A stretch of 64,000 bases of DNA, taken from Fuerstiella sp. (GTDB taxonomy: Bacteria > Planctomycetota > Planctomycetia > Planctomycetales > Planctomycetaceae). The position numbers and the translations under genes were made by a program. Each line of letters opens with the position of its first letter. The stretch's first letter is position 1. Below, in pieces: positions 34,458 through 64,000 of the stretch. The stretch covers positions 261,365 through 325,364 of the forward strand of contig JAQWOH010000043.1 of assembly GCA_029245955.1 (NCBI GenBank), written 5' to 3'. The notes beneath the pieces were generated by a model. The model made no database searches, was not told the DNA's origin, and was given only the letters and a program-made list of their open reading frames with translations.

Positions 34458-37400
34458 CTAATCATCGTCGCCGACAAGACGTGACAGTTGTCGATCGATC
34501 TCTTTTTGCGTCACGCGTTGAAATTCCGCGTTGGTCAGTGATTCGGCAATTGTACCGGCTTGTTCTTCGTGGGCGCGGTCAAATTCACGAGCCAGTTCCT
34601 GCATCCAGTCAGGGGGTTCGATGCCCGAACCCAGACGGGATTCCATGAACTCGCCAATCTCCTGACGCAGAATGTTGAAATTTTCAGCAGCCTCTTGTTC
34701 AGAAGCTTCGTTAAGACCGGGGCTGCAACGACCGACTCGAGCCGTCATTCGATTGACCGCCAAAGTCGCCACGATGCGTTCCCGGATATGATCGTGCAGC
34801 GTGGGCAACTGCACTCCGTACTCGGATTCCAGAGAATCCAGTTCTTCAACCAGCGATTCGGCGACCTCACACGTTTTTTCCGCAAGTTCCGTTTCGATAT
34901 CCGCACCAAGATCGGTCGCTCCAAATCGCACGATGGCTTCGTGGGCAATCTGATATGGCACGTTGTTCCAGTTAAAACGCTCGTACAGTGATTCAAGTCG
35001 CAGGAAATCCAGTAGGCAGTACAGGCGATTGCCGTAGTCTGAATGAGTTGTCGTGGTGTTGTATTCGAGGAACCGGTCAAAATTGTCTACGACGGATTCA
35101 TAAACGAATTCCATCATGTCGGTCGCCTCATCCCGATCGATCAGCTCGGCATTGATGTCATCAATGATCTTTACGGACTGGACAATACCCAGATTCTGTT
35201 CCAGTTCGTCCAGCAGAGATTCTGCACCGTGGTGCACGATCGCCCTGGCATTCCCAAGGGTCAGCATCCGCGTGTGGAATAAATCATCGCCGTAGGATTC
35301 GATGAATTCGCGAATCTCCGTGGCTCGGTCTTCATCGTGCAGCTCCTCAACCACGGACAATCTCATGGAACTGCTGTGGGTGGACCACAACTCTCTATAC
35401 GCATCCAGCAGTCGCTGGATGCGTCGATAGACATTGCGACGCTGGCGTGAGGTTTCTGTCTTCCAGCGAGTAGAGGCATGCAGAATAGCTTCAACAGATC
35501 GGGCCAGGCCAATGCGAAACAGTCGGTCAAACTCGGTCACCGCCTGGCCCAGGGGCCTTGAACTGCGTTCCATACGGAAGGCCGTCTGCAGCAGACGAAA
35601 CGTCTCTTCCAGAAGTCCAAGTCTAGGCAACTGACTGAGCAGCAGACGAATCACGGCCTGTAACATTCGCGCCTTCAGTATGCCGGTCGGTTGTCCGCCA
35701 TGCTCAAACGGAACGTACAGCAAAGGGCGGCGTTCCAGTGCCTTGATAAAACGACCGAAGTTCTTGTGGACTGTGGCGGAGTCATGGCTGAGAACCGCGC
35801 GAAGCATTGCCACGAGTTCTTTGTCGAACGCTCGCCCCTGACCCGGCAGGTTTTCGCCGTCCAACAGAACACAGCACAGCATCCGTTCGGCCATCAGGAA
35901 TTCAACGGTCGTTGAGATGGCGTTCTGCATCAGCAGAAAGCGGGACTGCAGCTGAATGTCATACTCGATGTTGGCATCAAGATCCGCCGAATACGTCTGG
36001 ATGTCGTGATCACGTACCTCGCCGACAAGATGGCCCAGTTCCTTCAGAAAATGACGTATCGACACCAGCCAGCCTCGAATGTGCTCCTGCTGCTCGGCAT
36101 CCTGAGGCCCGGCCGTGGCCCGCTGAGACAGGGCCACAGCAGTACTGCCCCACAAAGACCCCAGCGTGTGGAGGAACTTCAGTCGCGGTTCAATCTCACG
36201 GTAGATAATTTCAAACTCGGTCGTCCCGGGCCCATAGCCTTCATCAACCGTATCCCCTTCAACTCCGTCATCCGCACTGTCACGGAAAACCACGTTATCG
36301 TAAGCCGCCTGAAACAGATCAGACTGCTCATCTTCTTCATCAAACAGGTGGTCAAGGTCCAGCCCTGAATCTGCCTGATCCGACTCGTTTCCTGCAGTTG
36401 ACGAATTACGGTGACGGTCGACAAATTCTTTGAGTGACGGGACAACCCAGAAGGTGTCGGCGTTGGCCTCCAGAAAGGCGAACAGTCGCCGAAGCATTTG
36501 CCATTGCTGACTTCGATCAGGATTCGTGTTGACCATGCGCAGCAGGCTGTGCAGCAGGCTGTGCATCGAGTGCTTGCCGGATTCCAGCCCCATCCTGTCG
36601 GCTTCACTGAGCCACTGCATCAGCAGTCCCAGCGCCGCCACTTCGTCATTACGATCAATCAGCGCGTGCACAACCTGAGCAAAGCTGCGAGGAGACTCAA
36701 AGTTGCCAACGTGTTCACGCCAGAACGAAATGTCGCCGGCGGATTCACCTGCCGTTCTCCATTCCGCCAGTGCTCGAGCAACATGCTGCGCGGCCGTCAG
36801 TGATTCGTCACCTCGCACTTCCGGAAGGTCCGAGACTGTGGTGGTGGCGTAAGTATCCCACTCTTCAGCCAGTATCCGGAACTCCTTTTCGACCGCCAGA
36901 TGGATTTCACTCTGACCTGCCGCAGCGGCCTCTGCCATGATCGCTGCGGACGCATCAAACAGCTGCTCAACGACTTCGATCAGCACTTCCACGCGGTTAT
37001 CCGGAATTGCATCCTCACGTGCAATGAACAGTGGAAACATGCCCTGAAAGCCCAGCACATTCCACGGATCGACAATGGCGCCACACTGAATGCCGCGATG
37101 CAGCAGGTCGATGCATTCGGTGAGCAAACCATGCGCCATCGTCAGTGCACCGCCTCTCACCGACCGGTGAATGAGCATCAGACGCGACTGTAATTCCGAT
37201 TCAAACCTGGCAGACACGCATGGTATGACGGCCGCTTCTTCACAGGCCGCCTGTTCAAACCCCAGCGATGCGTAAAATGCCGCCAGATGGCGATGCTGCA
37301 CCTGATTGGCACCGTACTGTGACAGGTACATATTTAACTGATGACGAACATGTCCAAACGGCTGCCTTGATTCCTCAGCGCTCGCAATCAAACGCTGACG

Positions 37401-38426
37401 GCGGCTGCCCGAACTCGTTTCAAGCAACGTCTGATAGAAATGGTCACGCTGACGGGCAACCATCGGCAACAGCGATGTCAATGAGACTGAGGAATCGTAC
37501 GTTTCAGGACCGGAGCCGCTGATCGCCGAAGCCATCAGAATCGTCCCGGCCAGCACGGCCGACGCATCAAACAGGCGTTCCTCTTCCGGAATCTCCGTCG
37601 AAACATCAATCCAGCGCTGAAGAGAATCAAGAATAATGCGGCGAATGACAAATCGTCGATAGAAGCCCTTTGTGTCGATGACTTCAGGATCCCATTCCCC
37701 GAACATGTAGTTCGTGCGTTTATTTACAGGGTGCAGGTGGTCATGAGCTCTAATGTCAAGACTCAGCTCATCCAGTTGCTCCAGACTGAAATGTGCGGGC
37801 GCTGTCATATCTTCCGGCAGTTGCCTGAGGAATTCCAGAGTCGCATCGATCAACTGCTGATACGGACCAGTTGCCGTTCCCACGTCCTGCCAGTACAGCG
37901 GTGTAGGACAAAAACGCTCGTGGTCAAAGACCTGCATCCGCCGGTCATTTTCAAGAACCGCAACAGGGCGATATCCCACATAGCTGTTAAGTTGCCTCAG
38001 GGCGTCCGCCGTGAGCGCAGCCGTATCGTCCCAGCCCACGGTCGTACCGGCTCTGAGCGTCACTTCAAAAACACGAGCAACAAACAGCGGCTGGCAGACA
38101 TCCACCGCTTCCAGATGAAACAACAAGTCCGCGTGATGTTTTCTGTAGGCCGGAAACAACACATCGAAGGTGGTTTCGATCACGCGTGTGGCCTGATCTG
38201 TCTGCTGAAACGCAGATTCTCCGGACTCTGCCAGGTTTTGCAGTTCGCCCAGCAGGTGATCTCGAACCTCGGACAACTGGACGCCAAAATCACAGACCTG
38301 AAACAGCTCATTCAGGCACACGCGAAACCGAGCCCCGGGGGTACCGTCTGAGAAGTTCAGGTATCCCAGCAGATCGCGATAGCATTGTCTCCGAGATTCG
38401 GCTGCAGCTGCATCAGGAACGGACAT
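34458..38426 (-). CDS. Large hypothetical protein (1322 aa), soluble, acidic, apparently alpha-helical; no recognisable domain
   Basis: An uninterrupted 3.97-kb ORF. All overlapping ORFs are short and low-complexity. I saw no hydrophobic TM stretch, no P-loop, no HExxH and no signal peptide when reading the translation. Confidence 0.8.
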   Translation of the reverse strand: MSVPDAAAAESRRQCYRDLLGYLNFSDGTPGARFRVCLNELFQVCDFGVQLSEVRDHLLGELQNLAESGESAFQQTDQATRVIETTFDVLFPAYRKHHADLLFHLEAVDVCQPLFVARVFEVTLRAGTTVGWDDTAALTADALRQLNSYVGYRPVAVLENDRRMQVFDHERFCPTPLYWQDVGTATGPYQQLIDATLEFLRQLPEDMTAPAHFSLEQLDELSLDIRAHDHLHPVNKRTNYMFGEWDPEVIDTKGFYRRFVIRRIILDSLQRWIDVSTEIPEEERLFDASAVLAGTILMASAISGSGPETYDSSVSLTSLLPMVARQRDHFYQTLLETSSGSRRQRLIASAEESRQPFGHVRHQLNMYLSQYGANQVQHRHLAAFYASLGFEQAACEEAAVIPCVSARFESELQSRLMLIHRSVRGGALTMAHGLLTECIDLLHRGIQCGAIVDPWNVLGFQGMFPLFIAREDAIPDNRVEVLIEVVEQLFDASAAIMAEAAAAGQSEIHLAVEKEFRILAEEWDTYATTTVSDLPEVRGDESLTAAQHVARALAEWRTAGESAGDISFWREHVGNFESPRSFAQVVHALIDRNDEVAALGLLMQWLSEADRMGLESGKHSMHSLLHSLLRMVNTNPDRSQQWQMLRRLFAFLEANADTFWVVPSLKEFVDRHRNSSTAGNESDQADSGLDLDHLFDEEDEQSDLFQAAYDNVVFRDSADDGVEGDTVDEGYGPGTTEFEIIYREIEPRLKFLHTLGSLWGSTAVALSQRATAGPQDAEQQEHIRGWLVSIRHFLKELGHLVGEVRDHDIQTYSADLDANIEYDIQLQSRFLLMQNAISTTVEFLMAERMLCCVLLDGENLPGQGRAFDKELVAMLRAVLSHDSATVHKNFGRFIKALERRPLLYVPFEHGGQPTGILKARMLQAVIRLLLSQLPRLGLLEETFRLLQTAFRMERSSRPLGQAVTEFDRLFRIGLARSVEAILHASTRWKTETSRQRRNVYRRIQRLLDAYRELWSTHSSSMRLSVVEELHDEDRATEIREFIESYGDDLFHTRMLTLGNARAIVHHGAESLLDELEQNLGIVQSVKIIDDINAELIDRDEATDMMEFVYESVVDNFDRFLEYNTTTTHSDYGNRLYCLLDFLRLESLYERFNWNNVPYQIAHEAIVRFGATDLGADIETELAEKTCEVAESLVEELDSLESEYGVQLPTLHDHIRERIVATLAVNRMTARVGRCSPGLNEASEQEAAENFNILRQEIGEFMESRLGSGIEPPDWMQELAREFDRAHEEQAGTIAESLTNAEFQRVTQKEIDRQLSRLVGDDD

Positions 38427-46540: not shown

Positions 46541-47230
46541 TTACGCCGCCTTGCGTTCATTTTTTCCGGCCACGTTTCTCAGACGGTATTCGATAGCATT
46601 ACCCTGCTTGCCGCACGCCTCAATGAATTCCATCTTTCTGAAACAGTAGGCCGCTTTCTGCGCCAGCCAGCGTGGCATGTGGCCCTGTTCCGCGATCTGC
46701 GCTGTTGTGAACGTATCCGGCACTGCCATCTGCAGGGTCGTCCAGAGCTCGTCAGGTGTTCTGAACGAATGTGATTCGTTAACGCTGACGAGCGTGCGAT
46801 CCTGAACGCTGAACTTTCTTCGCCACGTGCGTTTCCGGGGTGGAACGCGAATCTCTTCCTGTTCAGTCAGCAGGACGTCCAGCTGCAGATTGGGGTGTGG
46901 AAATGCCTGCGTAAAATGCACCAACTCCAGAAAGACATCCGCCAGCGTCTGGTGAGCCGGACTGTATCGACGGCTCTGAACTTTGCCATTTCGGCGAACT
47001 TTCTTCAGCAGCTTTTTCTTTGCCGCCAGCGGTTTAACAACGACAACCTGATGGTGCTTCGTCAGTTTGCGGATCTTGTCACGAATCGCCAGCAGTGAGG
47101 CACATTGGATCTCAATCAACCGCTCCCGCTCGTCAATGGCATCAATACGAAAACCATCGACTTCGACTTCGTGTCGGTGTACGTCTGCCACATAGTGCAG
47201 TTTCAGTTGTTGGTGAAGCGACGTGGCCAT
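46541..47230 (-). CDS. Putative PD-(D/E)XK nuclease-fold protein (CoiA-like H...D...E-x-Q motif)
   Basis: The N-terminus HQQLKLHYVADVHRHEVEVDGFRIDAIDERERLIEIQCASL resembles the CoiA-type nuclease core (H, D, EIQcS). The rest is basic (KKKLLKKVRRNGK). The family call is by eye only. Confidence 0.45.
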   Translation of the reverse strand: MATSLHQQLKLHYVADVHRHEVEVDGFRIDAIDERERLIEIQCASLLAIRDKIRKLTKHHQVVVVKPLAAKKKLLKKVRRNGKVQSRRYSPAHQTLADVFLELVHFTQAFPHPNLQLDVLLTEQEEIRVPPRKRTWRRKFSVQDRTLVSVNESHSFRTPDELWTTLQMAVPDTFTTAQIAEQGHMPRWLAQKAAYCFRKMEFIEACGKQGNAIEYRLRNVAGKNERKAA

Positions 47231-52444: not shown

Positions 52445-53105
52445 GTTGGATTATCCCGGGACGGTTCTGCACACAAACCATCCGGCTGATTCACTCCAAA
52501 GCACCGGACCTACAATGGTGGGAGAGTATCGGACCAACAAACAAAGGTCAGCCCTCCGGCCTGTCAATCCAGCGAAAGGAATGCCCAGAGTTTGCCGCAT
52601 TGTCGCCTGAAAAATCGGACCGCAGGCGAAACGACAGCTCGTAATGTCTAGTGAAGAGGAGATTTGTTGAACGAATTCAGATCACTGACTGCTGACACTA
52701 CTGGCTCTTTCGCTTTGAAGACATATCCACCGGAACGGGCGAGACCGGAAGATTCCGGGAAATTGTAAAATCGGCGCAAATGGTAGGGTTTGGGGGGCAG
52801 ATTAACATAGGCATATTACCCAAAATACAGCATTAATTCGCCGCAGCGACGTAAGCTAGCAGAGTGCAGCTCAGGTTCGAAATTGTTGAGACTACCTGAC
52901 TGATGGGCTCGTTTGCCCTATAGCCGCATGTGCGGCTGGTGTGCATAACACCCCCCTGAATCGTATCAGCTCCCTTTGCGGCACAGATCCAATGGTCGTC
53001 CCTACCATTCACTCACAACAATTTCATCCTGTAAGAAGGGCCAGCGGTATGCCGACAGCAGCCCGTTTATTTTGTCAATTTTCGATTCCACGCTTGGTAT
53101 TCCCC

Positions 53106-56100
53106 ATGGCTCTGCAACTTCGACGACTTCTGTTTTCAGTAGTCGTCACCGTGATCGTTCTAAACAGCGGGGACAGGGCGGCAGGACAGGATGAGGACGC
53201 CGTTCCTGAGTCTGCACAGGAAGACACCGACGACATCAAGAGCTGGGACCGCCTGATTTACGTGCCCTTCAAGGAACTCCGGAAAGTCTTTGACAACCAT
53301 GATGCGTCCGCCGTGATTCCGTATTCGGAATACATGCAGCTGTTGCGTCATTATCTGCAACAAACGGACACCCCTGCTGCGACACCTGACGCAGTCATCA
53401 CGGAATCCGCATTCAAAGGGAACGTGGAGAAGGACGTGGTCCGTATTCAGGCTGAATTCAAGGTGATGGTGTTGCAGGAACAGGGATGGGCGACTCTGCC
53501 GCTGAATTTAGGAGATGCGGCCGTCGGAAAAGTAACGAGCGCCGATGGCAGCGATGTTCTGCTTCAGGGCGTCTCGAATGGACACTACAGACTGTTGCTG
53601 AACGGCGCGGGCCTGCACTCTGTGACTCTGGAGCTGTTGGCCACGGTCAGGACGTCGCCGGAGAACCGATCCTTCCATTTGAATTGCCCGGCTGTCGGCA
53701 TCAGTGAACTGACCCTCACGATACCGGAACCGGATCAGTCAATTGCAGTCAGTCCACTGCAGGTTCTGTTACCAGTTGATGGCAGCAACGACAAACAGAC
53801 TGTCGTAAAGGCGAGTCTGGGAGCGACGGACAGCTTTCAGGTCAGCTGGAATCCTGAGGCGGGCGCCCGGCCCATTATGGATCTGCTGTCGAGTGTCTCC
53901 AATCAGACAGACGTTCGCGTAGAAGCGGGCCTCATTCAGACAACCACGACGCTGAACTATGAAATTCTGCGCGGAGAACTGACCGAAGTTTCAGTGAAAG
54001 CTCCACTGGATGCCCGCATAATCGACGTCGTTTCGGGGAATGGTCGAATTCGCGCCTGGAAGGCGGAGCCAGGCGAGAAGCATCAGGTGATTCGCATCGA
54101 GTTATTAGCACCGGTGTCCGACCGATTTCAGGTTGAGATTCAGACCGAGCGAGTCCCGGACGGAGATACATTCCAACTGATCGGGTACGACGATGTTGAG
54201 AAACTGCAGGGTATCCATGCGGATGGGGTCGTTCGCGAATCCGGACGCGTTGTCGTCACTTCAGACGCGTCCCTGACGACCATCGTAACATCACACTCCG
54301 GAATAAAACGGATTGATGTCACATCGCCGGGGAAGGGCGGTGACATTCAGGGGCGGCAGGCATGGGAGTTCAGCGGTACGACCGGACGTCTTGTTCTGCA
54401 AACACGTCCGGTAGAACCGCGTCTACTGGTTGATCAAAACAGCCGAATTGTATTCGGTGATGACGAAATTCGTTTATCGACTCGACTGACTTACACCGTG
54501 GAGCGGGCCGGGGTCTTTCAGCTTGAGCTGACGTTTCCGGAGACGCTGACCATCGACAGCGTGCGAGCGGACGGCATGAGCGAGTTTAACGCTGATAAAA
54601 CATCAGGCAAACTGTTGTTGTCTCTCGTGCAGAAACGAATCGGCAGAATCAACGTCGACGTTACAGCCCACCAGAGTTTTGATGCTGCTGCAGAGAATAC
54701 CGAAACGAACATTCCCACAGTTGTCCCCGGCGGAGTCGAACGTGAAACGGGCCGAGTTACGCTGTTCGCGCCGCAATTTCTGGACGTAGCAACAGTCAAC
54801 GAAAAGCTGAACGGCGTTTTCCCGGCGGAAGTTGCCGAGCCGCGTGCCGTCGGTCGAGCGGTGCGAGTTTCTGCGTGGAGATATACTCAACGTCCGTTCA
54901 GCCTCACCGTCCGGACTTCGCCGCGTCCTGCTCAACTGGCTGCGAGTATCGCCACGACGGCGAGCGTGGACCCGGACGTGATCAAGATCGAGAGCGTGCT
55001 GCAGTTCGACATCAGAAATGCCGGCATTGATACCTTTCGAATAGCGGTCCCGGTGTCGATCGTTGAGGAGATTCGATTTCGGTCACTGAATTCTCAGCAC
55101 GTCATTCAGCAGCGTGATAAGTCAACGGAAGTTATCGACGGCTGGGTCACATGGACTCTGGTTCTGCAGAACGAAGTGACCGGCACAGTCAAGCTGGGGG
55201 CAGACTGGGACGTTCCGATTAAGGAACTGGACAACATCACTCAAACTGAGTCGCTCACACTGGAACCGGTCCGTATCCTGCCCCCGTTTTCTGAAAAGCA
55301 GGGGGATAAACGTAAAGTGTCTCTGACCCAGACACGCGGCGAAATCCGATTACTCCGTCACGAGTCGCTGTCGATTACAGCGGACGGTGAGGGAGCGACG
55401 ATGGAACAGGTCGATGTTCGTGAACTGGAATTGTTGCCTCCGGACGGATATCTGGCGTTCCGGTACTTCTCTCAGCCAACGGCGACGACAATCACCATTC
55501 GAAAACATGAGATCCACGAAGTTGTCGGCACCGTCGTCTCGCGGTCCGCCGTCGAAATCGTGACTGACAAGCAGCGCCTCGCCAACTACCGCTGCCGTCT
55601 GAGAATCACGACCAGTGAACGACAGCGACTGCGAATCGACGTACCGGCGGGAGCGGATCTGCAGGCACCGTTGCTTAACTCCAGCCGCACAGCGTTTGAG
55701 GCCGCGACAGGCGTGAAAGCGATGCTCGGGTGGGACCCCTATTTCGTCAACATCAGCCGTACTGGAACCTCGGACGAGGAATTCCTGCTGTCATTCCAAT
55801 TCCGCTGCCCGATTTCTCTGCCCGACAGCTACCCGTACGAAGGACGCGGAAGTAGACAGACATTCCGGGTGCCGTCGGTGGGCGACGCTGGTGGCGGGAC
55901 AGTAACGCAACAGTCGCGCGTCGCCATCTGGACGCCCGAAGACGTATCTCTGGTTGGTGAACCGGAAAAATGGAATATTGCCGGCCGGCAGACGTGGTCG
56001 TTCTGGAACCCGCTGAATTCTCCCGCAACGGCACACGAAGCAGCAGCTCTGAATAATTGGGTCGGTGAAAGCAGCGGAGCTCCGGAATTCGCTCGTCAGG

Positions 56101-56600
56101 GCAATGTAACCGTCTACCGTTCACTTGGCCGACAGACCACGATCTCCGTTGTCTGGTGGAATCGTCCGTTCCTTGTCGCCGTGATCAGTGGCGCACTGGT
56201 GTTCGTCGGTTTCATTCTGCGGCACACAACATGGGAAAACCGTATCACATTAACGGTGCTTGTATGTCTTGGTGTATCCGTTTGGTCACTGAATGACAGT
56301 TCCGAAACACTGCAGTTCGTGTCGGCAGGTTCGCTGGGGCTTGTAGCCGTGGCGGGCATCTGGTTGACCGGACTGTTCCTGGGGCATAGCTCAGGAGCAG
56401 GACCGAACTCAGAATCTAATCGCCACGATCCGCCGACAGACGCTCATCCTGTGGACGATCACCCGTCAACACCACCTACGGATCCACCTCCCGCCGTTAA
56501 TCCCGTTGTTCCAGACAATGTTCCGTCAACGCCGGCTGCGGCAGTGAGTCCGTCTCCCGACGTGGCGAACTGGATGAATGACCTGATGGGAGGCAAGTAA
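53106..56600 (+). CDS. Giant envelope protein, module A: signal peptide + ~1000-aa ectodomain + 3 C-terminal TM helices + Pro-rich tail; no recognisable family
   Basis: ATG 53106 gives MALQLRRLLFSVVVTVIVLNSGDRAAGQ (signal). The track ORF starts at GTG 52941. The C-terminal helices are FLVAVISGALVFVGFIL, ITLTVLVCLGVSVWSL and AGSLGLVAVAGIWLTGLFLG. The tail is PPTDAHPVDDHPSTPPTDPPPAVNPVVPDNVPSTP. Confidence 0.8.
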   Translation: MALQLRRLLFSVVVTVIVLNSGDRAAGQDEDAVPESAQEDTDDIKSWDRLIYVPFKELRKVFDNHDASAVIPYSEYMQLLRHYLQQTDTPAATPDAVITESAFKGNVEKDVVRIQAEFKVMVLQEQGWATLPLNLGDAAVGKVTSADGSDVLLQGVSNGHYRLLLNGAGLHSVTLELLATVRTSPENRSFHLNCPAVGISELTLTIPEPDQSIAVSPLQVLLPVDGSNDKQTVVKASLGATDSFQVSWNPEAGARPIMDLLSSVSNQTDVRVEAGLIQTTTTLNYEILRGELTEVSVKAPLDARIIDVVSGNGRIRAWKAEPGEKHQVIRIELLAPVSDRFQVEIQTERVPDGDTFQLIGYDDVEKLQGIHADGVVRESGRVVVTSDASLTTIVTSHSGIKRIDVTSPGKGGDIQGRQAWEFSGTTGRLVLQTRPVEPRLLVDQNSRIVFGDDEIRLSTRLTYTVERAGVFQLELTFPETLTIDSVRADGMSEFNADKTSGKLLLSLVQKRIGRINVDVTAHQSFDAAAENTETNIPTVVPGGVERETGRVTLFAPQFLDVATVNEKLNGVFPAEVAEPRAVGRAVRVSAWRYTQRPFSLTVRTSPRPAQLAASIATTASVDPDVIKIESVLQFDIRNAGIDTFRIAVPVSIVEEIRFRSLNSQHVIQQRDKSTEVIDGWVTWTLVLQNEVTGTVKLGADWDVPIKELDNITQTESLTLEPVRILPPFSEKQGDKRKVSLTQTRGEIRLLRHESLSITADGEGATMEQVDVRELELLPPDGYLAFRYFSQPTATTITIRKHEIHEVVGTVVSRSAVEIVTDKQRLANYRCRLRITTSERQRLRIDVPAGADLQAPLLNSSRTAFEAATGVKAMLGWDPYFVNISRTGTSDEEFLLSFQFRCPISLPDSYPYEGRGSRQTFRVPSVGDAGGGTVTQQSRVAIWTPEDVSLVGEPEKWNIAGRQTWSFWNPLNSPATAHEAAALNNWVGESSGAPEFARQGNVTVYRSLGRQTTISVVWWNRPFLVAVISGALVFVGFILRHTTWENRITLTVLVCLGVSVWSLNDSSETLQFVSAGSLGLVAVAGIWLTGLFLGHSSGAGPNSESNRHDPPTDAHPVDDHPSTPPTDPPPAVNPVVPDNVPSTPAAAVSPSPDVANWMNDLMGGK

Positions 56601-59600
56601 TGTTCGGATTGAACACGGCGCAGACCGCAGCACACAATGCTGTCTCCAGACCCTGGGGTACGTTCAGTGCAGCATTGACCGTTATGGTTCTGCTTGCCAC
56701 CACAACAACCGCCCACGCACAGGACAAACATTCTGAACAGAAACTCGGACGCCAGAGTTTTATCCCCGCCGATCAGCTCGACACCATATTTGAACGATCT
56801 CCGCACGGAGTCATGTTGCCGCGTGCAGAGTTTCAGGATCTGCTGCGAAAAGCTCAGAATGCTCAGGCGCACGCTGCAGATATCCCGGCGCAGACAATCA
56901 TGCGTTCCGTTTCGTATGACGTCACACAGCAGGCAGAACACGCGATCGTCCGACTGACAATTGACGTAGAACAGTTTGCGAACGACTGGCAGGCCCTCGA
57001 AATCCCCGTCGGAAATCTACTCGTGGAAGAGGCGACAATTGCAGGCAATCCAGCTGCACTCGGTCGCGATCAAAAACACGCCGACATCGTTACCGTATTC
57101 AACCACAAACCAGGTCGCTTCACACTGCAGATAACTTTGTCCACTGCACTGGGCAACGTTGGAAGTGATCGACTTGCCGCCTTTCAGGTGCTCAGCGGTG
57201 CACCGGCAGAGTTAAATGTTGTCTGTCCGGCCGAACAACATCTGGAAGTCAATGACCTTCAGCTGCGCCGTCCGACCGCCCTGGATCAGCTCGCCAATTA
57301 CCAAATCCCGCTTAATTCTCAGAATGCCGTCCGCCTGAAGTGGACGTCGCGACAGAAAAAGACCGACACACAAACTCTTGTATTTGCCCGGACAGATGCA
57401 CAGGTTCAGATCAGCAGCGACACATTAAGATGGACGTCAGAAACCAGACTGTCTGTATTCGGAAGTTCTGTTAATCAAGTGGTGGCGGTCGTTCCCGCGA
57501 CGCTGGAAATCACGTCCGTGGATTCCATGGGACTGGAATCATGGAAGTTGGAAGACGATCCGGAACGAAAGAACTTCACACGGCTGCTGCTGGCATATCG
57601 TCAGCCGTTTTCAGATGACCGCATCGTAAAGTTAGCGGCGGTCGCCCCGAACCAGCCCGAACGTTCGTCTCAGATTCCGTCCGTCGAATTTGTTGATATC
57701 ACGTCTCACACCGGGCGACTGTTCGTCGCCCATGAAGACCAGCTGCGACTGATGTCGACTGTTGGCGGGGGCATTCGACAACTAAGCACAGCGGAAGCCA
57801 CTGAAGCGCGCCCGCAGGACGAAGTGTTCGACTTCTGGCTGCAGGATTTCCTGTTGTCTGTAGCCGTTCGGCCTCGTGACCGCGAACTCTTTGGCGAAGT
57901 CAACTCCGTGCTATCCGTTGCGGACACTACGGCCTCGTTTGAGTGTGAGATTACAATTGAGACACTGAATACGCCATTATTTGAAACCGCGTTGACGCTG
58001 CCGGACGGGTGGCAGATGGGCGCCATAACCACACCAGACGGCGTACCGCTCGCGTGGCGATCCGGCACAACGACCAGTCAGATTGTCGTCGAACCGGAAA
58101 CTCCGATTGAGCCAGGCGCATTATTCAGTTTCTCTATTCCGTTTGTGCGCACGATTTCGGATCCCAATGAGACGCAGACAGTCACTCTGCCAGTCGTGAC
58201 TGTGGCCGACACGCTGATCGTCGGCGGCACGTATCAGATTTCGGCAGCGTCAGATATCACCATCGCGCCAATTGATGTGGCCGGGCTGTCGCCGATTGGC
58301 GATGAAGACGGCACGCTCTTGTTTCGCACACAGGGAACCACCTATTCCGGAAAGCTGGCAGTCACAAGGAAACCAGTCCGAATCTCCAGTCGTTCGGTGC
58401 TGCGTTCGTGGATGGACACTCACCAGAGTACCGTTGAGGCGGTCGTCACCTTAGACATCACGAACGGCACCGCTCGAACGTTACAGCTGACACTGCCGGA
58501 GACGCTGGGCGAACAGGTACAGTTTGATGTCGTATCTATCGCACAGGTTCCCGGTTTCCACGATCAGCAGGTCCCGGCGTCTGTGACGATTTCAGAACAG
58601 ACGGTCGCAGATGCGGAAAACAATGAGCGAACATTCTCACTGACCTTCGACAAACGGATTGCCGGGGCTCTTACTCTCAAGACCCGGATTCAACGGGCAC
58701 GCAATGGCGGACAAAAACTGACGGTTCCCTTTGTCAGGGTCACTGGAGCCGTCAGACAGCACGGTCTCATTGTTTTTGAAGCGTTGCCGGAACAGCAACT
58801 TACCTCGGTTAAAGGAAATGATTCCGTTTCCGGCCTGACGATCGCTGACGCGGGATTGGTGGATCCCCCGCCGGCGGCTTCCGGTCGTCGCATTGCACTG
58901 GTCTACCGATATATTCAGCCGCAATACTCACTGAACCTGGAAGAGACTCGGTTCATGACACAAACAGTTCCCTCAGCGGTTTGCGAACAAATGACGAATG
59001 TGAGTCTGCTCAGTGAAACAGGCATGATTCAGCGTTCCTGCACTGCAAGGTTTCGCTGCGTTGGTGTGCAGACACTTCGTTTCACACTGCCGCAGTCCGA
59101 ACAGTCGTTTCTGTGGTCGACGATCCTAAATAGCGAAGCCGTCGAGGTCCGGCGTGACGACAACGATTATCTGGTGGCGATCCCCACGAACAGCGAGCAA
59201 ACGGAACATACGCTCGAGATTATGTTTGAATCCACAATAACCGACGCCGCGGTTTTTGGTACGACCACTCAACAGTCGCTGCAACTGTCAATCGACACGA
59301 AAAGCGGCACCGCATCGCCTATTGACGTGCTGGAACAGAAGTGGGATGTCCGGTATCCGGACAACATGATGATGCTGGCCTATGACGGCGGATTTCACCC
59401 GCTGCATCCACTGGAGCAACCCGGCTGGCTGCAGCATTTGGCAGGCAAATTCCGTCTACCGACTGTTTACGACACGACAAATCGACTGATGACCGTCGGC
59501 ATAATTCTTCTGACGCTGTTCATCGGAACAGCGCTCGTGTGTCGACGGCGATGGAAAAGTCTGGGCGGCGTTTGCCTGCTGGGAGTGTTGGTTGTGTCGA

Positions 59601-62600
59601 TATCGCTGACTGGCTCCAGCGATCAGGCATTTCAACAGACAACCCACAGGTCCGATCCCTACGACGCCGCGATAACACTGGGGATGAGTGAGGAATTTGA
59701 GGCTGTTGTCCCGACAGAAAACTTCACGGCACCTGCCGCGCAACCGACTCCGGACACACTCACTCGAAATGACACACCGTCGAGTACAATGAAACGGGAA
59801 CGTATCGCCGAGGATGGTGCGACTCAGAAGACGGAACAAGAGCCGCAACTGAACGGTGGGGCGTTCGGCGGAATCGGTGGCATGGGCAGGGGTGGGGACC
59901 GGGAGACTGTCTCGGCCGCGTCTGAACAAGCCGATACGCCAGACTTTGATTTGGCACTCGAAGGGATCATTTCAACGCAGAACGATGATTCAGACTTCAA
60001 CAGCGCAGCTCCTCCACTGCCGGGGATTCCGGGGACACGCGGCAGCATTCCGTTCTCCAGACGATCGGGTTCATCACGTCTTTCGATTCGTGCAGCAATT
60101 GCTCAGCCCGCCGACTACCGTTCACTGCAGTTTCGATCAATTGGCACGGGACCCGATGCCGGAACGCTGCAGGTCGTCGTCCAGGGCAGACACCACTTGA
60201 ACTCCCTGCGACTGATCGCGGCGTCCATCGTCGTGCTCATTTGCCTGACGTGCCTGGGCAGGTCGCCAATGGCCAGAACATGCATCGGCGTGCTTCTGTT
60301 TCTGGGGGCTGCAGCTGTTGTCCCTCTGCTGCCAAATCAATGGCAAAGCGCAGTCGACGGCGTGGCCATCGGCACGGCCGCGGGTATCGGGATTTGGATC
60401 ATTATAGGACTGGCGGCCTGCGGCCGTACCTGTCTGTCATCGTGTTGTCGCGTTATGTTTAAGTCTCGCAGCGCCGCTGTATCCACCAGCATGTTGGTGC
60501 TGATGGTGACAGGCCAGCCGGCCACAGCGGCTCCTCCAGCAGTGTCGGCTCCGTCGCCCGCTGCGGTCCTGTCCGGTGAAGACACGACGGTATCACGTCC
60601 GAACGTTGTGCTGCCATACACGTCGGGCCGACCGGAACTGCTGGCCGACCGGGTTTTTCTGCCGCGAGACGAGTTTCTGAAACTGTATCGCTCGGCCTTC
60701 CCGGATGAAATCGGTGGACGGCAGACAGTTCCGAAGACAGGAGTTTCCGCCGCATTTTACAAGAGTGATGATCTGAGACAGGTAAAGGACTCAGCCTGGT
60801 CGCAGACATTTTCTGCGCGGTACATCGTTCGCAGCTTTTCTGACAGGCCGGTCAGTGTTCCACTGCCGCTCGGGAAGGTCGCTGTCCGGTCCGCTTCTCT
60901 GAACGGCTCTGCCGCCATTCTGCTGGGAAGATCAATGGCGACACCGGTCCCGCCATCTGCAAAGCAGGCAGCTCAGGAGGCCGACAACGCCCGGCAGCAA
61001 GTTCAGCAACGGGCCCCGGAAAAGATCAGTCCTCCGGCCGATGATACGACCGTCTATTCCATCCATATTCCTTCCGCAGGTCTGCACGTGGTGGATATTG
61101 TGTTTGAGGTCACCGCCACTGTTGAAAACTCAATCGGCCGCCTGACGCTCCCGTTGCGCCCTGTCCCCGCGGGAAGCCTGCTGTTCAATCTTCCGGACGA
61201 CGGACTGGAAGTTCGAATCAACGGTCGCAGGAATGCGTTTCGCACGAATGGGCGGCAGGTCACTGTCCCGACATCAACCGCCACAGATACACGAATTGAC
61301 TGGCGGCCGGCCAGCACTCAAAACACTACTGATACAATTTTCCACGCAACCGCCAATACAGCGTTAACAATCAATGACTCCGGACTGACACTGCAGTCGT
61401 CCATTATGATCAACTGCCGACAGGGACAGTTGTCGGAAGTCGACATCGCTGTGCCGGACAATTATCTGGTGCAGCAGGTTGAAGGTGCTGACGTGGCTGG
61501 CTGGAGTTTAGAGTCTGCTGCAGCGTCAACCGCAGACATCGATCAGCCACCAGTGGAAGCCGACCAGCGTCTTGCAGGCAGCAGTGCGTCTCGGCCGGCG
61601 AACCGAGACGCTTCGGACATCTTGCGGATTATATTCAAACGCCCCGTCGAAGAGCAGACATCGGTCAGCCTGAAACTTTTTCAGCGACAGGTCACGACTG
61701 CTGACAAGTCCGATCTGTCGGTGCCCGTACCTGCGGTCAAAGCAGCGTCACGAGACTCGGGAAACGTCACCATACTCGCAGGTCGTGAACTGGAGGTGCG
61801 AGTCAACTCATTGTCCGGGGTCAGTCAGCTCAATGCAGCGGATTCTCAGCTTCCCGCAGGTGCAGACAAGACGTTACGACGCGTTCTTGCGTGGCGCTAT
61901 ACGCGGCACCCGGTTGCCATTACCACCAACATCTACCGACGGGCGGATCGTCTCGTGGTCAATGCGCTGCACGGGGCCCAACTGGAATCACAGCGACAGC
62001 TGTGGACCAGTTTGATGACTGCCCATATCACCGGCGCTCCGCGTCGCCGACTGGAGATTGAGGTGCCTGCCAGCTTCATTGCTCTGGATGTGAGTGCGAA
62101 CGGCCTGGACGACTGGTCATTCACTCAGTCTCAGAAAGCCGCTGACTCCAGAATTCTGAACATCCGGCTCGCCACCGCAACAACCGGTGCAGTCAGCGTT
62201 GTCATTCAGGGGCAGGCCGATCGCAGCAACGGACAGTCAGAGGCCAATCTGGTGCCACCGCGCCTAATGGGCGCCGACGAATCGAGAACAACGCTAAGCG
62301 TGTGGCTGGACGCCTCTTCGGAGATCGCCGAAGCGACCGCCAGCGAATGGAAGCGAGTCGGAAGCGGTACTACCATCGATTCCAGGATTCTCAAGCTGCA
62401 GGCTGACACCCCCGACATTTCATTTACCAATGCTACCGCCGCACCAGATCCGGTCACATTGTCATTGCGACAGGCGCCTGCATCCCTGATTGCGGAATCT
62501 GTATCTGTGACCAACGTCACCGATACGTCCATCGAACTCACTCTGGGCCTGAACTGGACGATCGCTCGAGCAGCAACTCAGGAACTTTCGTTCTCACTGC

Positions 62601-64000
62601 CGCAGGCACTCTCCGATGTTTTTGACTTTCAGATTCCGGGACTGCGTCAGCTCCGAAAGCAACCGGTCGACAACGACCGGGTTGAATTCACTATCCACCT
62701 GCAGCAACCCGCCAGTGAACGCTTTTTTGTACTGGGCACGGGAACGCTGCCGCTGCCCGATTCACGGCAGATTCTGGCGGACCCTCCCCGGTTTCTGGTA
62801 AAACAGGATACCAGGGCGTCCATCGCCAGCCAGTCACACTTCTGGGTCGTTGTCAATCAGTCTGCGGGACTGCTGGAAGCCGTCAACGTGAACACAGACG
62901 GCGACGAAGTGTCTGCCGATCAGATCAAGACCAACATTCCCGCCGGTTTCCTGCAGCAGTCTGTCGCCATCCGTCGGCTCCGCAGCAACCGCCCTAACTC
63001 TCCGTGGCAACTGAAATTCCCGGAACGTCAACAGGTTTCTCCTGCCGTCATCGCACTGGCCGCCCATACAACGGTCATCGCGGAGGATGGAACCTGGCGT
63101 TCACAGCACGTGCTGCAGGTGCGCAACGAATCGCGTCAGTTTTTACCGATTCTGCTGCCTCAACGCAGCCGGTTCCTGTCTTGCCTGGTCAAAGGAAAAC
63201 CCACGCGCATTGTTTCTCGCCCGGAAGGTGGTGAAACACTGTTCCTGATACCTGTCCCTCAATCAGGCGAAGTCTCTACCCCCTTTGAAGTTCGCATCGC
63301 CCTGGCCGGCGCATTCGCACCGGTCGGAAAGCAACTGGGCGGGATCAACGTCGACATTCCTGTTCCCGTATTTCCTGAATATCGGGACTTCCCGGGCTAC
63401 GGAATAACCGTGATGCGGAATACGTGGAGTATCCATGTGCCGGACACGTGGCACAGCACACCGCACAAAGACCCGCGCCACACTAACGTCGTGATCGCAG
63501 ATGCAGCCGACTTCGAGGATGCCTCGCTGCTGTCAGTGGTAGACAACGTCAAGTCGATCATCAATTCCGTACAGTCTTCGAAAGGCAGAGGAGAATACGG
63601 GCGGGCTTATGAGACATTGCAGAGCCAGCAGAATATCCTTTTTTCACAACACGGCAATACAGCGGCTGCAGAGCAACAGCGAGAGCAGGCGCTTCAGGAT
63701 CTGCAAGGACTGTTCGGCGAGCAGTCGCAGCCTCCCGACTTCGCAAAAAACAAATGGCTGTCCGGCTCGACCGTGCCCGACAGTGTTACGAATACGTATT
63801 TGTCCAGTGAAGCCCTCGGTCTGAACAAATTTAACAACGACAATAATGCTCTGTTTATTGCCGGCAATGACCCCCGGAGTGTGGCAACTCAGCAGACACA
63901 GCAGGAATTCAGATTCGCGTTGCCCGCTCAGGTTGAGGCCGACGTCAGCAAACGATCGAAACTGGATGCGATTAAGAAGCTGGCGCCGCAACTGAAATCG
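56600..64000 (+). CDS. Giant envelope protein, modules B1+B2 (>2466 aa, 3' end beyond window); NOT present in the supplied ORF track
   Basis: ATG 56600 overlaps the upstream TAA (TAATG). Frame +2 was hand-translated over 56600-57840, 59456-59640, 60422-60480, 61862-61912 and 63962-64000 without a stop. The track lists no frame +2 ORF anywhere in 56600-64000, as expected for an ORF with no stop in the window. The N-terminus is MFGLNTAQTAAHNAVSRPWGTFSAALTVMVLLATTTTAHAQD (signal peptide). Confidence 0.8.
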   Translation, partial: MFGLNTAQTAAHNAVSRPWGTFSAALTVMVLLATTTTAHAQDKHSEQKLGRQSFIPADQLDTIFERSPHGVMLPRAEFQDLLRKAQNAQAHAADIPAQTIMRSVSYDVTQQAEHAIVRLTIDVEQFANDWQALEIPVGNLLVEEATIAGNPAALGRDQKHADIVTVFNHKPGRFTLQITLSTALGNVGSDRLAAFQVLSGAPAELNVVCPAEQHLEVNDLQLRRPTALDQLANYQIPLNSQNAVRLKWTSRQKKTDTQTLVFARTDAQVQISSDTLRWTSETRLSVFGSSVNQVVAVVPATLEITSVDSMGLESWKLEDDPERKNFTRLLLAYRQPFSDDRIVKLAAVAPNQPERSSQIPSVEFVDITSHTGRLFVAHEDQLRLMSTVGGGIRQLSTAEATEARPQDEVFDFWLQDFLLSVAVRPRDRELFGEVNSVLSVADTTASFECEITIETLNTPLFETALTLPDGWQMGAITTPDGVPLAWRSGTTTSQIVVEPETPIEPGALFSFSIPFVRTISDPNETQTVTLPVVTVADTLIVGGTYQISAASDITIAPIDVAGLSPIGDEDGTLLFRTQGTTYSGKLAVTRKPVRISSRSVLRSWMDTHQSTVEAVVTLDITNGTARTLQLTLPETLGEQVQFDVVSIAQVPGFHDQQVPASVTISEQTVADAENNERTFSLTFDKRIAGALTLKTRIQRARNGGQKLTVPFVRVTGAVRQHGLIVFEALPEQQLTSVKGNDSVSGLTIADAGLVDPPPAASGRRIALVYRYIQPQYSLNLEETRFMTQTVPSAVCEQMTNVSLLSETGMIQRSCTARFRCVGVQTLRFTLPQSEQSFLWSTILNSEAVEVRRDDNDYLVAIPTNSEQTEHTLEIMFESTITDAAVFGTTTQQSLQLSIDTKSGTASPIDVLEQKWDVRYPDNMMMLAYDGGFHPLHPLEQPGWLQHLAGKFRLPTVYDTTNRLMTVGIILLTLFIGTALVCRRRWKSLGGVCLLGVLVVSISLTGSSDQAFQQTTHRSDPYDAAITLGMSEEFEAVVPTENFTAPAAQPTPDTLTRNDTPSSTMKRERIAEDGATQKTEQEPQLNGGAFGGIGGMGRGGDRETVSAASEQADTPDFDLALEGIISTQNDDSDFNSAAPPLPGIPGTRGSIPFSRRSGSSRLSIRAAIAQPADYRSLQFRSIGTGPDAGTLQVVVQGRHHLNSLRLIAASIVVLICLTCLGRSPMARTCIGVLLFLGAAAVVPLLPNQWQSAVDGVAIGTAAGIGIWIIIGLAACGRTCLSSCCRVMFKSRSAAVSTSMLVLMVTGQPATAAPPAVSAPSPAAVLSGEDTTVSRPNVVLPYTSGRPELLADRVFLPRDEFLKLYRSAFPDEIGGRQTVPKTGVSAAFYKSDDLRQVKDSAWSQTFSARYIVRSFSDRPVSVPLPLGKVAVRSASLNGSAAILLGRSMATPVPPSAKQAAQEADNARQQVQQRAPEKISPPADDTTVYSIHIPSAGLHVVDIVFEVTATVENSIGRLTLPLRPVPAGSLLFNLPDDGLEVRINGRRNAFRTNGRQVTVPTSTATDTRIDWRPASTQNTTDTIFHATANTALTINDSGLTLQSSIMINCRQGQLSEVDIAVPDNYLVQQVEGADVAGWSLESAAASTADIDQPPVEADQRLAGSSASRPANRDASDILRIIFKRPVEEQTSVSLKLFQRQVTTADKSDLSVPVPAVKAASRDSGNVTILAGRELEVRVNSLSGVSQLNAADSQLPAGADKTLRRVLAWRYTRHPVAITTNIYRRADRLVVNALHGAQLESQRQLWTSLMTAHITGAPRRRLEIEVPASFIALDVSANGLDDWSFTQSQKAADSRILNIRLATATTGAVSVVIQGQADRSNGQSEANLVPPRLMGADESRTTLSVWLDASSEIAEATASEWKRVGSGTTIDSRILKLQADTPDISFTNATAAPDPVTLSLRQAPASLIAESVSVTNVTDTSIELTLGLNWTIARAATQELSFSLPQALSDVFDFQIPGLRQLRKQPVDNDRVEFTIHLQQPASERFFVLGTGTLPLPDSRQILADPPRFLVKQDTRASIASQSHFWVVVNQSAGLLEAVNVNTDGDEVSADQIKTNIPAGFLQQSVAIRRLRSNRPNSPWQLKFPERQQVSPAVIALAAHTTVIAEDGTWRSQHVLQVRNESRQFLPILLPQRSRFLSCLVKGKPTRIVSRPEGGETLFLIPVPQSGEVSTPFEVRIALAGAFAPVGKQLGGINVDIPVPVFPEYRDFPGYGITVMRNTWSIHVPDTWHSTPHKDPRHTNVVIADAADFEDASLLSVVDNVKSIINSVQSSKGRGEYGRAYETLQSQQNILFSQHGNTAAAEQQREQALQDLQGLFGEQSQPPDFAKNKWLSGSTVPDSVTNTYLSSEALGLNKFNNDNNALFIAGNDPRSVATQQTQQEFRFALPAQVEADVSKRSKLDAIKKLAPQLKS

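Follow-up and report, generated by a model that had tools for sequence, protein, structure and literature searches.

Tandem and fused β-sandwich modules in an uncharacterised, predicted envelope protein family of PVC bacteria

Results

Genes A and B

The window analysed here, a 64,000-nucleotide stretch of DNA from Fuerstiella sp. (contig JAQWOH010000043.1, positions 261,365 to 325,364), ends in two large plus-strand genes, A and B, which encode three copies of one large module. Module 1 is the product of gene A, and modules 2 and 3 (B1 and B2) are fused in the single open reading frame (ORF) of gene B. Gene A occupies positions 53049..56600, and its translation ends at a TAA stop codon at 56598-56600. 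Gene B (56600..64000) is open at the end of the window, its frame running from ATG 56600 through 2466 visible codons to the last base. Judged against full-length orthologues of 2687 and 2718 amino acids (aa), B lacks ~220 C-terminal residues in the window, including the β-hairpin and three transmembrane (TM) helices of the B2 anchor. The GC content is even over the A/B region (0.52-0.61).

A first-pass annotation, made from the letters and translations of this DNA, had described A and B as ORFs, and both are intact; the start that it assigned to A is probably wrong. ATG 53106, also used by some gene callers, would give a protein of 1164 aa. ATG 53049, 57 nt further 5′, gives 1183 aa and is probably the true start; this codon and its AAGGGG Shine-Dalgarno sequence are kept as far as F. 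marisgermanici, whose annotated start is the same ATG, and the orthologues of A begin with MPxAARxF. The stop codon of A and the start codon of B overlap in a TAATG (56598-56602), and a GGGAGG Shine-Dalgarno sequence for B lies at 56588-56593, within the last codons of A (…MGGK). Both features agree with the translational coupling that had been proposed for the two genes. The invariant C-terminus of A (…NDLMGGK, 56576-56600) overlaps this ribosome-binding site, so part of its conservation may reflect constraint at the nucleotide level.

Homology of the three modules

That A, B1 and B2 are tandem paralogues had been proposed from their sequences alone; single-sequence alignments hint at it, and profile alignments leave no doubt. 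In single-sequence BLASTP, A and B1 match at 5e-6 in a collinear alignment of 674 aa with 19% identity, A and B2 at 2e-5, and B1 and B2 at 7e-4. The profiles represent 35 orthologues of A and 30 of B, the latter all full-length and drawn from related loci. With hhalign, A 25-1076 aligns with B 38-1018 (E 3.5e-32, 935 columns), A 50-927 with B2 50-971 (E 6.6e-26, 818 columns) and B1 48-922 with B2 46-994 (E 9.4e-28, 832 columns), and the outcome did not change under other settings. Hidden Markov models (HMMs) gave the same picture: the A model matches B1 at 2.4e-18 and B2 at 2.1e-9, and the B1 and B2 models match A at 1.2e-37 and 1.9e-29, respectively, and no further ORF in the window. The segments being unrelated, an outcome that the annotation had allowed for, is not what these comparisons returned. 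By this evidence, A, B1 and B2 are paralogues that separated long ago within a single uncharacterised protein family, which belongs to the Planctomycetes-Verrucomicrobia-Chlamydiae (PVC) group.

Secondary, off-register alignments between the modules reach E values of 1e-8 to 1e-11, and self-comparison of A reveals an internal repeat (404-481 matching 575-652), which together show that every ectodomain is itself made of repeats. This bears on an internal WRY-type motif, which the annotation had taken as shared by the three modules. The motif is indeed present in A, B1 and B2 where the annotation placed it, but the copies belong to different repeats of the collinear alignment: B1 LVYRYIQPQ pairs with A LAFRYFSQP (residue 783), and B2 LAWRYTRHP pairs with A QAWEFSG (residue 418). 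By these pairings, the motif is a signature that recurs where successive repeats start, and not a single conserved landmark.

Anatomy of module A

The signal-like segments and N-terminal motifs of the three modules were all found where the annotation had located them. In A, the predicted signal peptide (53049..53186; h-region LLFSVVVTVIVL, c-region RAAG/QDE) was recognised by sequence and hydropathy, and the consensus of the orthologues at this point is ...AQE. The N-terminal motif that follows (WDRLIYVPFKELRKVF...VIPYSEYMQLLRHY, residues 47-86, 53244..53363) has residues that are invariant in the 35 orthologues, and consists of two copies of an 'hhhP(Y)xxhxxhh' element (a double 'hhhP + helix'). 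Despite this conservation, its predicted local distance difference test (pLDDT) values are low in the AlphaFold2 (AF2) monomer model, which leaves the motif unplaced. A segment that is strongly constrained yet unplaced in a monomer model fits an intermolecular contact, for which the motif is a good candidate.

The ectodomain of A (residues 96-960, 53391..55985) is predicted to be all-β, with about six β-sandwich domains and internal repeats; these domains have pLDDT values of 80-90 in an AF2 model whose overall value is 74.5. The membrane anchor (residues 1000-1091, 56103..56378), delineated by AF2 secondary structure and hydropathy, is a β-hairpin (1000-1019), preceded by a short helix, that leads straight into three TM helices (1020-1091). 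Small residues (Gly, Ala and Ser) abound in these helices, which are uncharged. A Pro-rich tail (56379..56600), predicted to be cytoplasmic, ends in a helix, NWMNDLMGGK, that is conserved in the orthologues.

Anatomy of gene B

B1 starts with a predicted signal peptide (…LLATTTTAHA/QDK, 56600..56719; sequence and hydropathy), followed by the N-terminal motif (SFIPADQLDTIF...VMLPRAEFQDLLRKA, 56744..56854), which aligns with that of A at E 1.8e-9. The B1 ectodomain (B residues 41-960, 56720..59479) is the collinear homologue of the A ectodomain, with a column conservation of 0.57-0.72. It is followed by a first TM pair (residues 963-1005, 59486..59614) joined by the putative cytoplasmic loop RRRWKS; hydropathy supports this pair in the window, in L002 (a relative with 83% identity) and in F. 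marisgermanici, and the collinear alignment matches it to TM1-TM2 of A. A linker of ~150 aa (59615..60064), acidic, Gly-rich and predicted to be periplasmic, is poorly conserved (0.19-0.28). The linker leads to a second anchor (residues 1158-1273, 60071..60418), which by sequence and hydropathy again comprises a β-hairpin (…LQFRSIGTGPDAGTLQVVVQ) and three TM helices.

The plan proposed for the modules in the annotation thus holds for signal peptide, motif and ectodomain, and was incomplete for B1, where the extra TM pair and the variable linker had gone unnoticed. The proposed homology of the A and B1 anchors was not recovered: the hhalign comparison of the second B1 anchor (FRSIGTG…) with the A anchor (YRSLGRQ…) is not significant (E 0.025). 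The second B1 anchor instead resembles the anchor at the C-terminus of B2 in L002, which hhalign matches to it with a probability of 78% and E 1.7e-5.

Between the last TM helix of B1 and module B2 lies a Cys-rich segment, predicted to be cytoplasmic (CGRTCLSSCCRV, B residues 1274-1285, 60419..60454); B1 ends with this segment when the two modules have genes of their own. It contains the juxtamembrane stretch CGRTCLSSCC; other B proteins have CGCCSCCSCPLTW and similar sequences, with 3-7 Cys, just before the internal signal peptide. The stretch is kept in most of the 30 other B orthologues aligned, and may be a metal-binding or acylation site.

B2 begins at B residue 1286 with an internal signal peptide (MFKSRSAAVSTSMLVLMVTGQPATA/APP, 60455..60529) that has recognisable n-, h- and c-regions. 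Its N-terminal motif (NVVLPYTSGRPELLADRVFLPRDEFLKLYRSAF, 60602..60700) aligns with that of B1 at E 1.2e-5 and weakly with that of A (E 0.0023). The ectodomain (B residues 1381-2280, 60740..63439) is predicted by AF2 to be all-β with about seven β-sandwich domains, and aligns with those of A and B1 in hhalign. A membrane-proximal helical region (63503..63868) has three long helices, with pLDDT values of ~77-87, and a fourth one. A low-complexity, Q/G-rich linker then leaves the window; in L002, B2 goes on through such a linker to its own hairpin and three TM helices. The AF2 model of B2 has a pLDDT of 73.6; its alignment was shallow, with 24 rows including distant two-module proteins, and a word-index search with B2 gave nine homologues.

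Fusion and fission of B1 and B2

A single B ORF of 2600-2870 aa directly after A is found in ~30 independent assemblies, including the complete genome of F. marisgermanici, so the B1-B2 fusion is not an assembly error. The stop codon or frameshift at ~60450 that would have separated the modules was looked for and is absent in this lineage. Gene order was surveyed in 68 genome loci, and B follows A wherever the flank is long enough. In five lineages (L012, L035, L047, L049 and L051), B is split into two genes. There B1 stops just past the Cys-rich stretch, at a boundary matching position 60455 of the window, the very junction that the annotation had named, and in L035 and L012 the separate B2 gene opens with its own Met and signal peptide. 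The internal signal peptide of the fused B is thus a true N-terminal signal in split lineages. Most of the 30 other B sequences aligned retain the n-, h- and c-regions of this signal, the c-region reading A-x-A or AQ(D/E). It has the features expected of the internal signal in a polytopic precursor processed by signal peptidase: the three regions, small residues at -1 and -3, and a position after an odd cytoplasmic loop.

In L012, the ~420-bp spacer between the B1 and B2 genes (14713-15129) consists of repeated GC-rich palindromic units (GGCCCGTTGGGCC, CCTGGGGC…GCCCCAGG) with the look of repetitive extragenic palindromic (REP-type) elements.

Predicted topology

The loops RHTTWENR, RRRWKS, RSPMAR and GRTCLSSCCRVMFKSR are positively charged, and all would be cytoplasmic in one topology that places the ectodomains outside; RHTTWENR, for instance, is predicted to be cytoplasmic because of its charge. 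The predicted periplasmic loops are acidic or neutral. As every short loop predicted to be cytoplasmic obeys the positive-inside rule, the fusion of B1 to B2 is topologically coherent, as the annotation had deduced from counting helices. The TM pair missed in that count leaves the result intact, since an even number of helices does not alter parity.

Distribution of the family

A word-indexed search with A gave 334 homologues, of which the best 120 are 50-83% identical and without any Pfam domain; those that are named among these 120 are called 'hypothetical protein' and come from Planctomycetaceae. The closest named relatives are proteins from Fuerstiella metagenome-assembled genomes (MAGs), with 81-83% identity, and the F. 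marisgermanici protein (64%). When 1.84 billion cluster representatives (50% identity) were searched exhaustively by HMM, 3901 proteins matched at E<=1e-3; the number was 2369 at <=1e-10 and 744 at <=1e-30. Many of the matches are two-module proteins of 2100-2400 aa. Beyond Planctomycetaceae, members occur in Rosistilla oblonga (Pirellulaceae), in MAGs of Verrucomicrobiota and Verrucomicrobiae, and in a Lentisphaeria MAG. The distant two-module proteins keep the order ectodomain, two TM helices, linker, about three TM helices, ectodomain and C-terminal TM helices, and fusions with this TM pattern are found in Verrucomicrobiota.

Synteny across Planctomycetota and related phyla, proposed in the annotation as a check, shows the A+B pair to be conserved: it is present in Fuerstiella (overlapping by 1 nt in F. 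marisgermanici), in other Planctomycetaceae, in L074 and in Rosistilla of the Pirellulaceae (4-nt overlap). Other arrangements exist as well. L071, from Lentisphaeria, has a single-module gene; L070 has one family ORF of 1591 aa, its other ORFs being spurious products of high GC; and the Verrucomicrobiota loci L072, L073 and L076 have a two-module gene with no adjacent A. No flanking gene is common to the planctomycete, Rosistilla and Verrucomicrobiota loci compared. Directly after the two-module homologue, L072 (17322-19703) and L076 (14319-16700) encode a secreted VIT-VWA protein of 793 aa, a gene that is absent from L073 and from every planctomycete locus.

Selection was measured as the ratio of non-synonymous to synonymous substitution rates (dN/dS) between the window and L002. 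The ratio is 0.10 for A overall, 0.045 for its N-terminal motif and 0.043 for its anchor; it is 0.13 for the B1 ectodomain, 0.17 for the B2 ectodomain and 0.49 for the B1 linker. LarE (0.15) and SHMT (0.036) served as controls. Ectodomains, N-terminal motif and anchors are under strong purifying selection, and the linkers are not.

Comparison with known families and structures

The annotation could name no family for these proteins, and database searches did not supply one. Pfam and NCBIfam searches with A and B (E<=1) returned only sub-threshold noise (Chp1-like_PIN 0.021, Wzy_C 0.62, FlgE 0.026), Pfam searches with 36 diverse relatives (E<=0.1) only noise in single members (including BatA_N at 0.085), and Pfam searches with the family members of the distant loci L070 and L071 nothing. 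Neither A nor B matched any of the PADLOC models of anti-phage defence. Searched by sequence against the PDB, the A profile found PsaE at E 0.75, the B1 profile found nothing, and the matches of the B2 profile were all poly-Q ones (huntingtin, TBP) that fell in its low-complexity linker. Scans of A and the visible part of B for a thioester, HExxH, Walker A, a metal ion-dependent adhesion site (MIDAS), LPXTG, a signal-peptide lipobox and RGD were negative; two 'lipobox' matches in B fall within the cytoplasmic Cys-rich loop, and were rejected as signal-peptide lipoboxes. In the literature on crateriform structures, cryo-electron tomography, ribophorin and fbcH we found no description of the A/B family.

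The structural matches of the AF2 models of A and B2 largely overlap in Foldseek, with template modelling (TM) scores of 0.1-0.3 and sequence identities of 7-12%. With A, the highest-ranking structure is ribophorin I/Ost1 (8b6l_O, 4.2e-10; also 6ezn_A), which is near the top of the B2 list as well (8b6l_O, 6.1e-9); the probability is 1.0 and the TM-scores are 0.24-0.32 (target) and 0.13 (query), values that unrelated β-sandwich arrays equal. Integrin α chains match both models at 1e-9 to 3e-9 over ~800-900 columns. PIG-T (8imx_T, 1.9e-5) was found with B2 only. CD109 (found with A only) and C3 match at E 1.7e-7 to 2.5e-5, with TM-scores of 0.06-0.08 and probabilities of 0.25-0.89, and mastigoneme proteins are also among the matches. 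These matches, between chains of β-sandwich domains with a C-terminal helical anchor, characterise the building blocks and do not demonstrate membership in a family.

The family plan met in the window and its relatives (signal peptide, N-terminal motif, repeated β-sandwich ectodomain and C-terminal TM helices, in two to three modules that are tandem or fused) can be compared with several known systems. Ribophorin I/Ost1 and PIG-T are non-catalytic, luminal subunits of oligosaccharyltransferase and glycosylphosphatidylinositol transamidase in the endoplasmic reticulum (ER). Both carry tandem β-sandwiches outside the cytoplasm, with TM helices at the C-terminal end. Unlike these, the A/B proteins are bacterial, two to four times larger and richer in repeats, with three TM helices per anchor and three paralogues; they have no detectable sequence similarity to them and no glycosylation genes nearby. 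No Ribophorin_I (PF04597) match was found in A, B or the 36 relatives, the PDB sequence searches found no oligosaccharyltransferase subunit, and the loci examined contain no STT3/PglB-type oligosaccharyltransferase gene. The integrin α leg (thigh, calf-1 and calf-2, with a single TM helix) is likewise a long membrane-anchored β-sandwich stalk, and integrin works as a hetero-oligomer. The A/B proteins lack the β-propeller head, MIDAS and metal sites of integrin α, and at 8-10% identity the likeness is that of generic arrays.

Bacterial α-2-macroglobulin (A2M) and BatD are membrane-anchored, β-rich proteins of the periplasm. Bacterial A2M (E. coli YfhM/ECAM) and CD109/C3 resemble the A/B proteins in being very large multi-β-sandwich proteins, the bacterial A2M being periplasmic and tethered to the inner membrane. 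In contrast, A and B are anchored by C-terminal TM bundles and not through an N-terminal lipobox; neither A nor the visible part of B contains a CxEQ thioester (regex C[GLS]EQ), and no A2M or macroglobulin (MG) domain model matched A or B at E<=1 or the 36 relatives at E<=0.1. BatD shares a signal peptide, a β-rich periplasmic region and a C-terminal TM helix with the A/B modules, as well as a VWA neighbour in the two Verrucomicrobiota loci described above. The A/B proteins differ from it in being two to five times larger and in having two to three paralogous modules; its family, PF13584, has no match in the 38 members scanned (A, B and the 36 relatives), and no MoxR, DUF58 or BatA/BatB gene occurs in the window or in L001-L003, L074 and L075. 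The annotation had named a match to a characterised family such as A2M or BatD as a result that would count against its view, and the profile searches found none.

FbcH of Bradyrhizobium japonicum offers a known parallel for the fusion itself: this polytopic cytochrome b/c1 precursor carries an internal signal peptide that re-starts export and is cleaved, giving two proteins at 1:1. The proposed logic of B1-B2 is the same, in unrelated proteins; cleavage of B is deduced from its n/h/c features and from the split genes.

Discussion

The A/B finding is real and not an artefact. Genes A and B are members of a PVC protein family that is large, constrained and unannotated, and which no described family or system fits; all three modules have in common Sec-type signal peptides, the N-terminal motif, ectodomains of ~900 aa and uncharged membrane helices rich in small residues. 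We propose that A, B1 and B2 assemble 1:1:1 as a hetero-complex with an inner-membrane anchor and periplasmic legs. The overlap of the genes and the fusion would enforce this stoichiometry and permit co-insertion. B would be inserted as a polytopic precursor, with the B1 ectodomain outside, followed by two TM helices, the periplasmic linker, the hairpin with three TM helices and the Cys-rich cytoplasmic loop; the internal signal peptide would then restart the export of B2. The conserved A-x-A or AQ(D/E) c-region suggests that this signal is probably cut by signal peptidase I, which would leave B1 and B2 as separate chains. For the complex we favour a role as structural scaffold, spacer or platform of the PVC envelope, possibly with partners encoded elsewhere, over one as enzyme, transporter or adhesin. 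Three observations point to a structural role: the TM helices are apolar and of a packing type, the loci examined encode no partner that would supply energy or act as an enzyme, and there is no catalytic motif. We consider this overall picture, a periplasmic inner-membrane hetero-complex with a structural role, to have about an even chance of being correct; its generic part, a hetero-complex in the periplasm, has better odds than the particular role.

Several points weigh against this proposal. The complex, the cleavage and the localisation, and with them the label 'envelope system', are things that we infer, and the topology is a prediction from hydropathy and the positive-inside rule. The AF2 models are of monomers, and a predicted template modelling score (pTM) of 0.36 does not fix the relative arrangement of the domains. 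Homology of the A anchor to the B1 and B2 anchors could not be demonstrated in the sequence comparisons above, and the single-module genes and the two-module genes with no A beside them suggest that a fixed A:B1:B2 trimer is not universal. The scaffold is argued from an absence of catalytic features, and generic β-sandwich arrays are also known in protease traps, chaperone-like subunits and secretion machinery.

Other explanations would account for part of the data. If the modules were non-catalytic scaffold subunits of a membrane enzyme complex in the manner of Ost1 and PIG-T, holding substrates or partners in the periplasm for a catalytic partner encoded elsewhere, the rank of ribophorin I in the Foldseek searches, the PIG-T match and the shared overall plan of tandem β-sandwiches before C-terminal TM helices would be explained. 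Integrin legs and CD109 score about as well as Ost1, so the match probably reflects a generic fold; the low TM-scores, the lack of PF04597 or other family similarity at E<=1 and the lack of a glycosyltransferase or transamidase gene as a conserved neighbour make this explanation unlikely. The family being a true bacterial relative of ribophorin I and PIG-T, the ER scaffold subunits of eukaryotes, is much less likely still, and we regard it as very improbable. A protective function akin to that of A2M or BatD, trapping proteases or buffering envelope stress, is suggested by the CD109 and C3 MG-domain arrays among the matches of A, by the periplasmic anchoring and β-rich build of the bacterial proteins, and by the VIT-VWA gene of the two Verrucomicrobiota loci, which recalls Bat operons. 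We hold it to be rather improbable, given the missing thioester, the lack of A2M, MG or BatD Pfam matches in 38 members at E<=0.1-1, the low probabilities and TM-scores of the CD109/C3 matches, and the lack of MoxR, DUF58 and VWA genes in planctomycete loci; in L073, too, there is no VWA neighbour.

There is similarly little to recommend the locus as a trans-periplasmic conduit or bridge, for instance in lipid or polymer trafficking, with ~12 TM helices as its membrane part. Very long periplasmic arrays, the many TM helices per A+B unit and a self-contained, conserved locus would suit such a function, but the TM helices are devoid of charged and polar residues and abound in Gly/Ala/Ser packing motifs, no locus encodes an ATPase or energising partner, and the folds of Lpt, AsmA/TamB and MCE proteins are not among the 50 Foldseek matches listed. 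Cell-surface adhesins or S-layer-type proteins, which also combine large Ig-like β-sandwich arrays with signal peptides, seem a highly implausible identity for the modules: C-terminal multi-TM anchors and positive-inside loops point to the inner membrane, LPXTG, PEP-CTERM, type IX secretion and autotransporter signals and Pfam Big, cadherin and RHS repeats were all searched for without a match, and a dN/dS of ~0.1 with 50-60% identity across genera is unlike fast-evolving adhesins.

The cell plan of PVC bacteria is unusual and much debated: their periplasm is enlarged, their membranes are invaginated and they bud without FtsZ; to our knowledge, almost none of the proteins behind this plan is known. 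Going beyond the proposed hetero-complex, one may speculate that the A/B proteins form a PVC-specific, pseudo-trimeric machine of the inner membrane whose ~900-aa legs fill the periplasm and help to set its enlarged, invaginated architecture, with B as a rare bacterial polyprotein processed by signal peptidase; we put this forward tentatively, as a possibility more doubtful than the complex itself. The family probably marks an uncharted part of the PVC envelope, with no representative in Pfam, NCBIfam or the PDB. The A+B pair of the cultivated species Fuerstiella marisgermanici and Rosistilla oblonga offers a defined target for work on this envelope. Even as a passive scaffold only, the family would fill a sizeable annotation gap and give a clear-cut natural example of genes that fuse and split where a signal peptide marks the boundary. 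Its domains are ordinary β-sandwiches; what is distinctive is their organisation into two or three modules.

Neighbouring genes and additional observations

Upstream of A, on the opposite strand, lies larE (TIGR00268, E 1.8e-86), the divergent neighbour that the annotation had named; genes for a NodB-type polysaccharide deacetylase and SHMT adjoin it. larE and the deacetylase gene are syntenic with A in the Fuerstiella-like clade only (in 20 and 14 of the loci, respectively) and absent in more distant loci. A functional link of A to these genes was considered and rejected, the limited synteny being read as descent.

The intergenic region between larE and A is 661 bp long. An alignment of this region from six genomes of the Fuerstiella clade, including F. 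marisgermanici, contains a conserved block (52760..52832, plus strand) with a promoter-like TTGTAA-15 nt-TAGGGT (52763-52789), ~260 nt 5′ of ATG 53049 and ~320 nt 5′ of ATG 53106. A second conserved block (53025-53065) contains a palindrome, CGGCATGCCG, around ATG 53049, whose 5′ arm is imperfect in the window (CGGTATGCCG). A simple sigma-70 scan of the intergenic region was empty, and no Rfam family matched it.

Some A orthologues, 51-55% identical to the protein of the window, are on contigs labelled Candidatus Kuenenia (L022, L032, L047, L049, L056 and L062) or Chitinophaga (L033 and L039), where the gene order is of the Planctomycetaceae type; these MAG labels are probably binning or classification errors. 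Alone in the family, P0303, a distant B-like protein of 2792 aa, carries a precomputed Pfam domain, PF07596, which we take to be the planctomycete DUF1559 pseudopilin-type domain; it may stem from a fusion or a gene-call artefact. Elsewhere in the window, a minus-strand ORF of 1322 aa (34458-38426) has no Pfam or NCBIfam match and by HMM does not belong to the A/B family. Another minus-strand ORF (46541-47230, 229 aa) has no Pfam match at E<=0.001, whereas the record of its L002 counterpart lists PF26351 (DUF8091).

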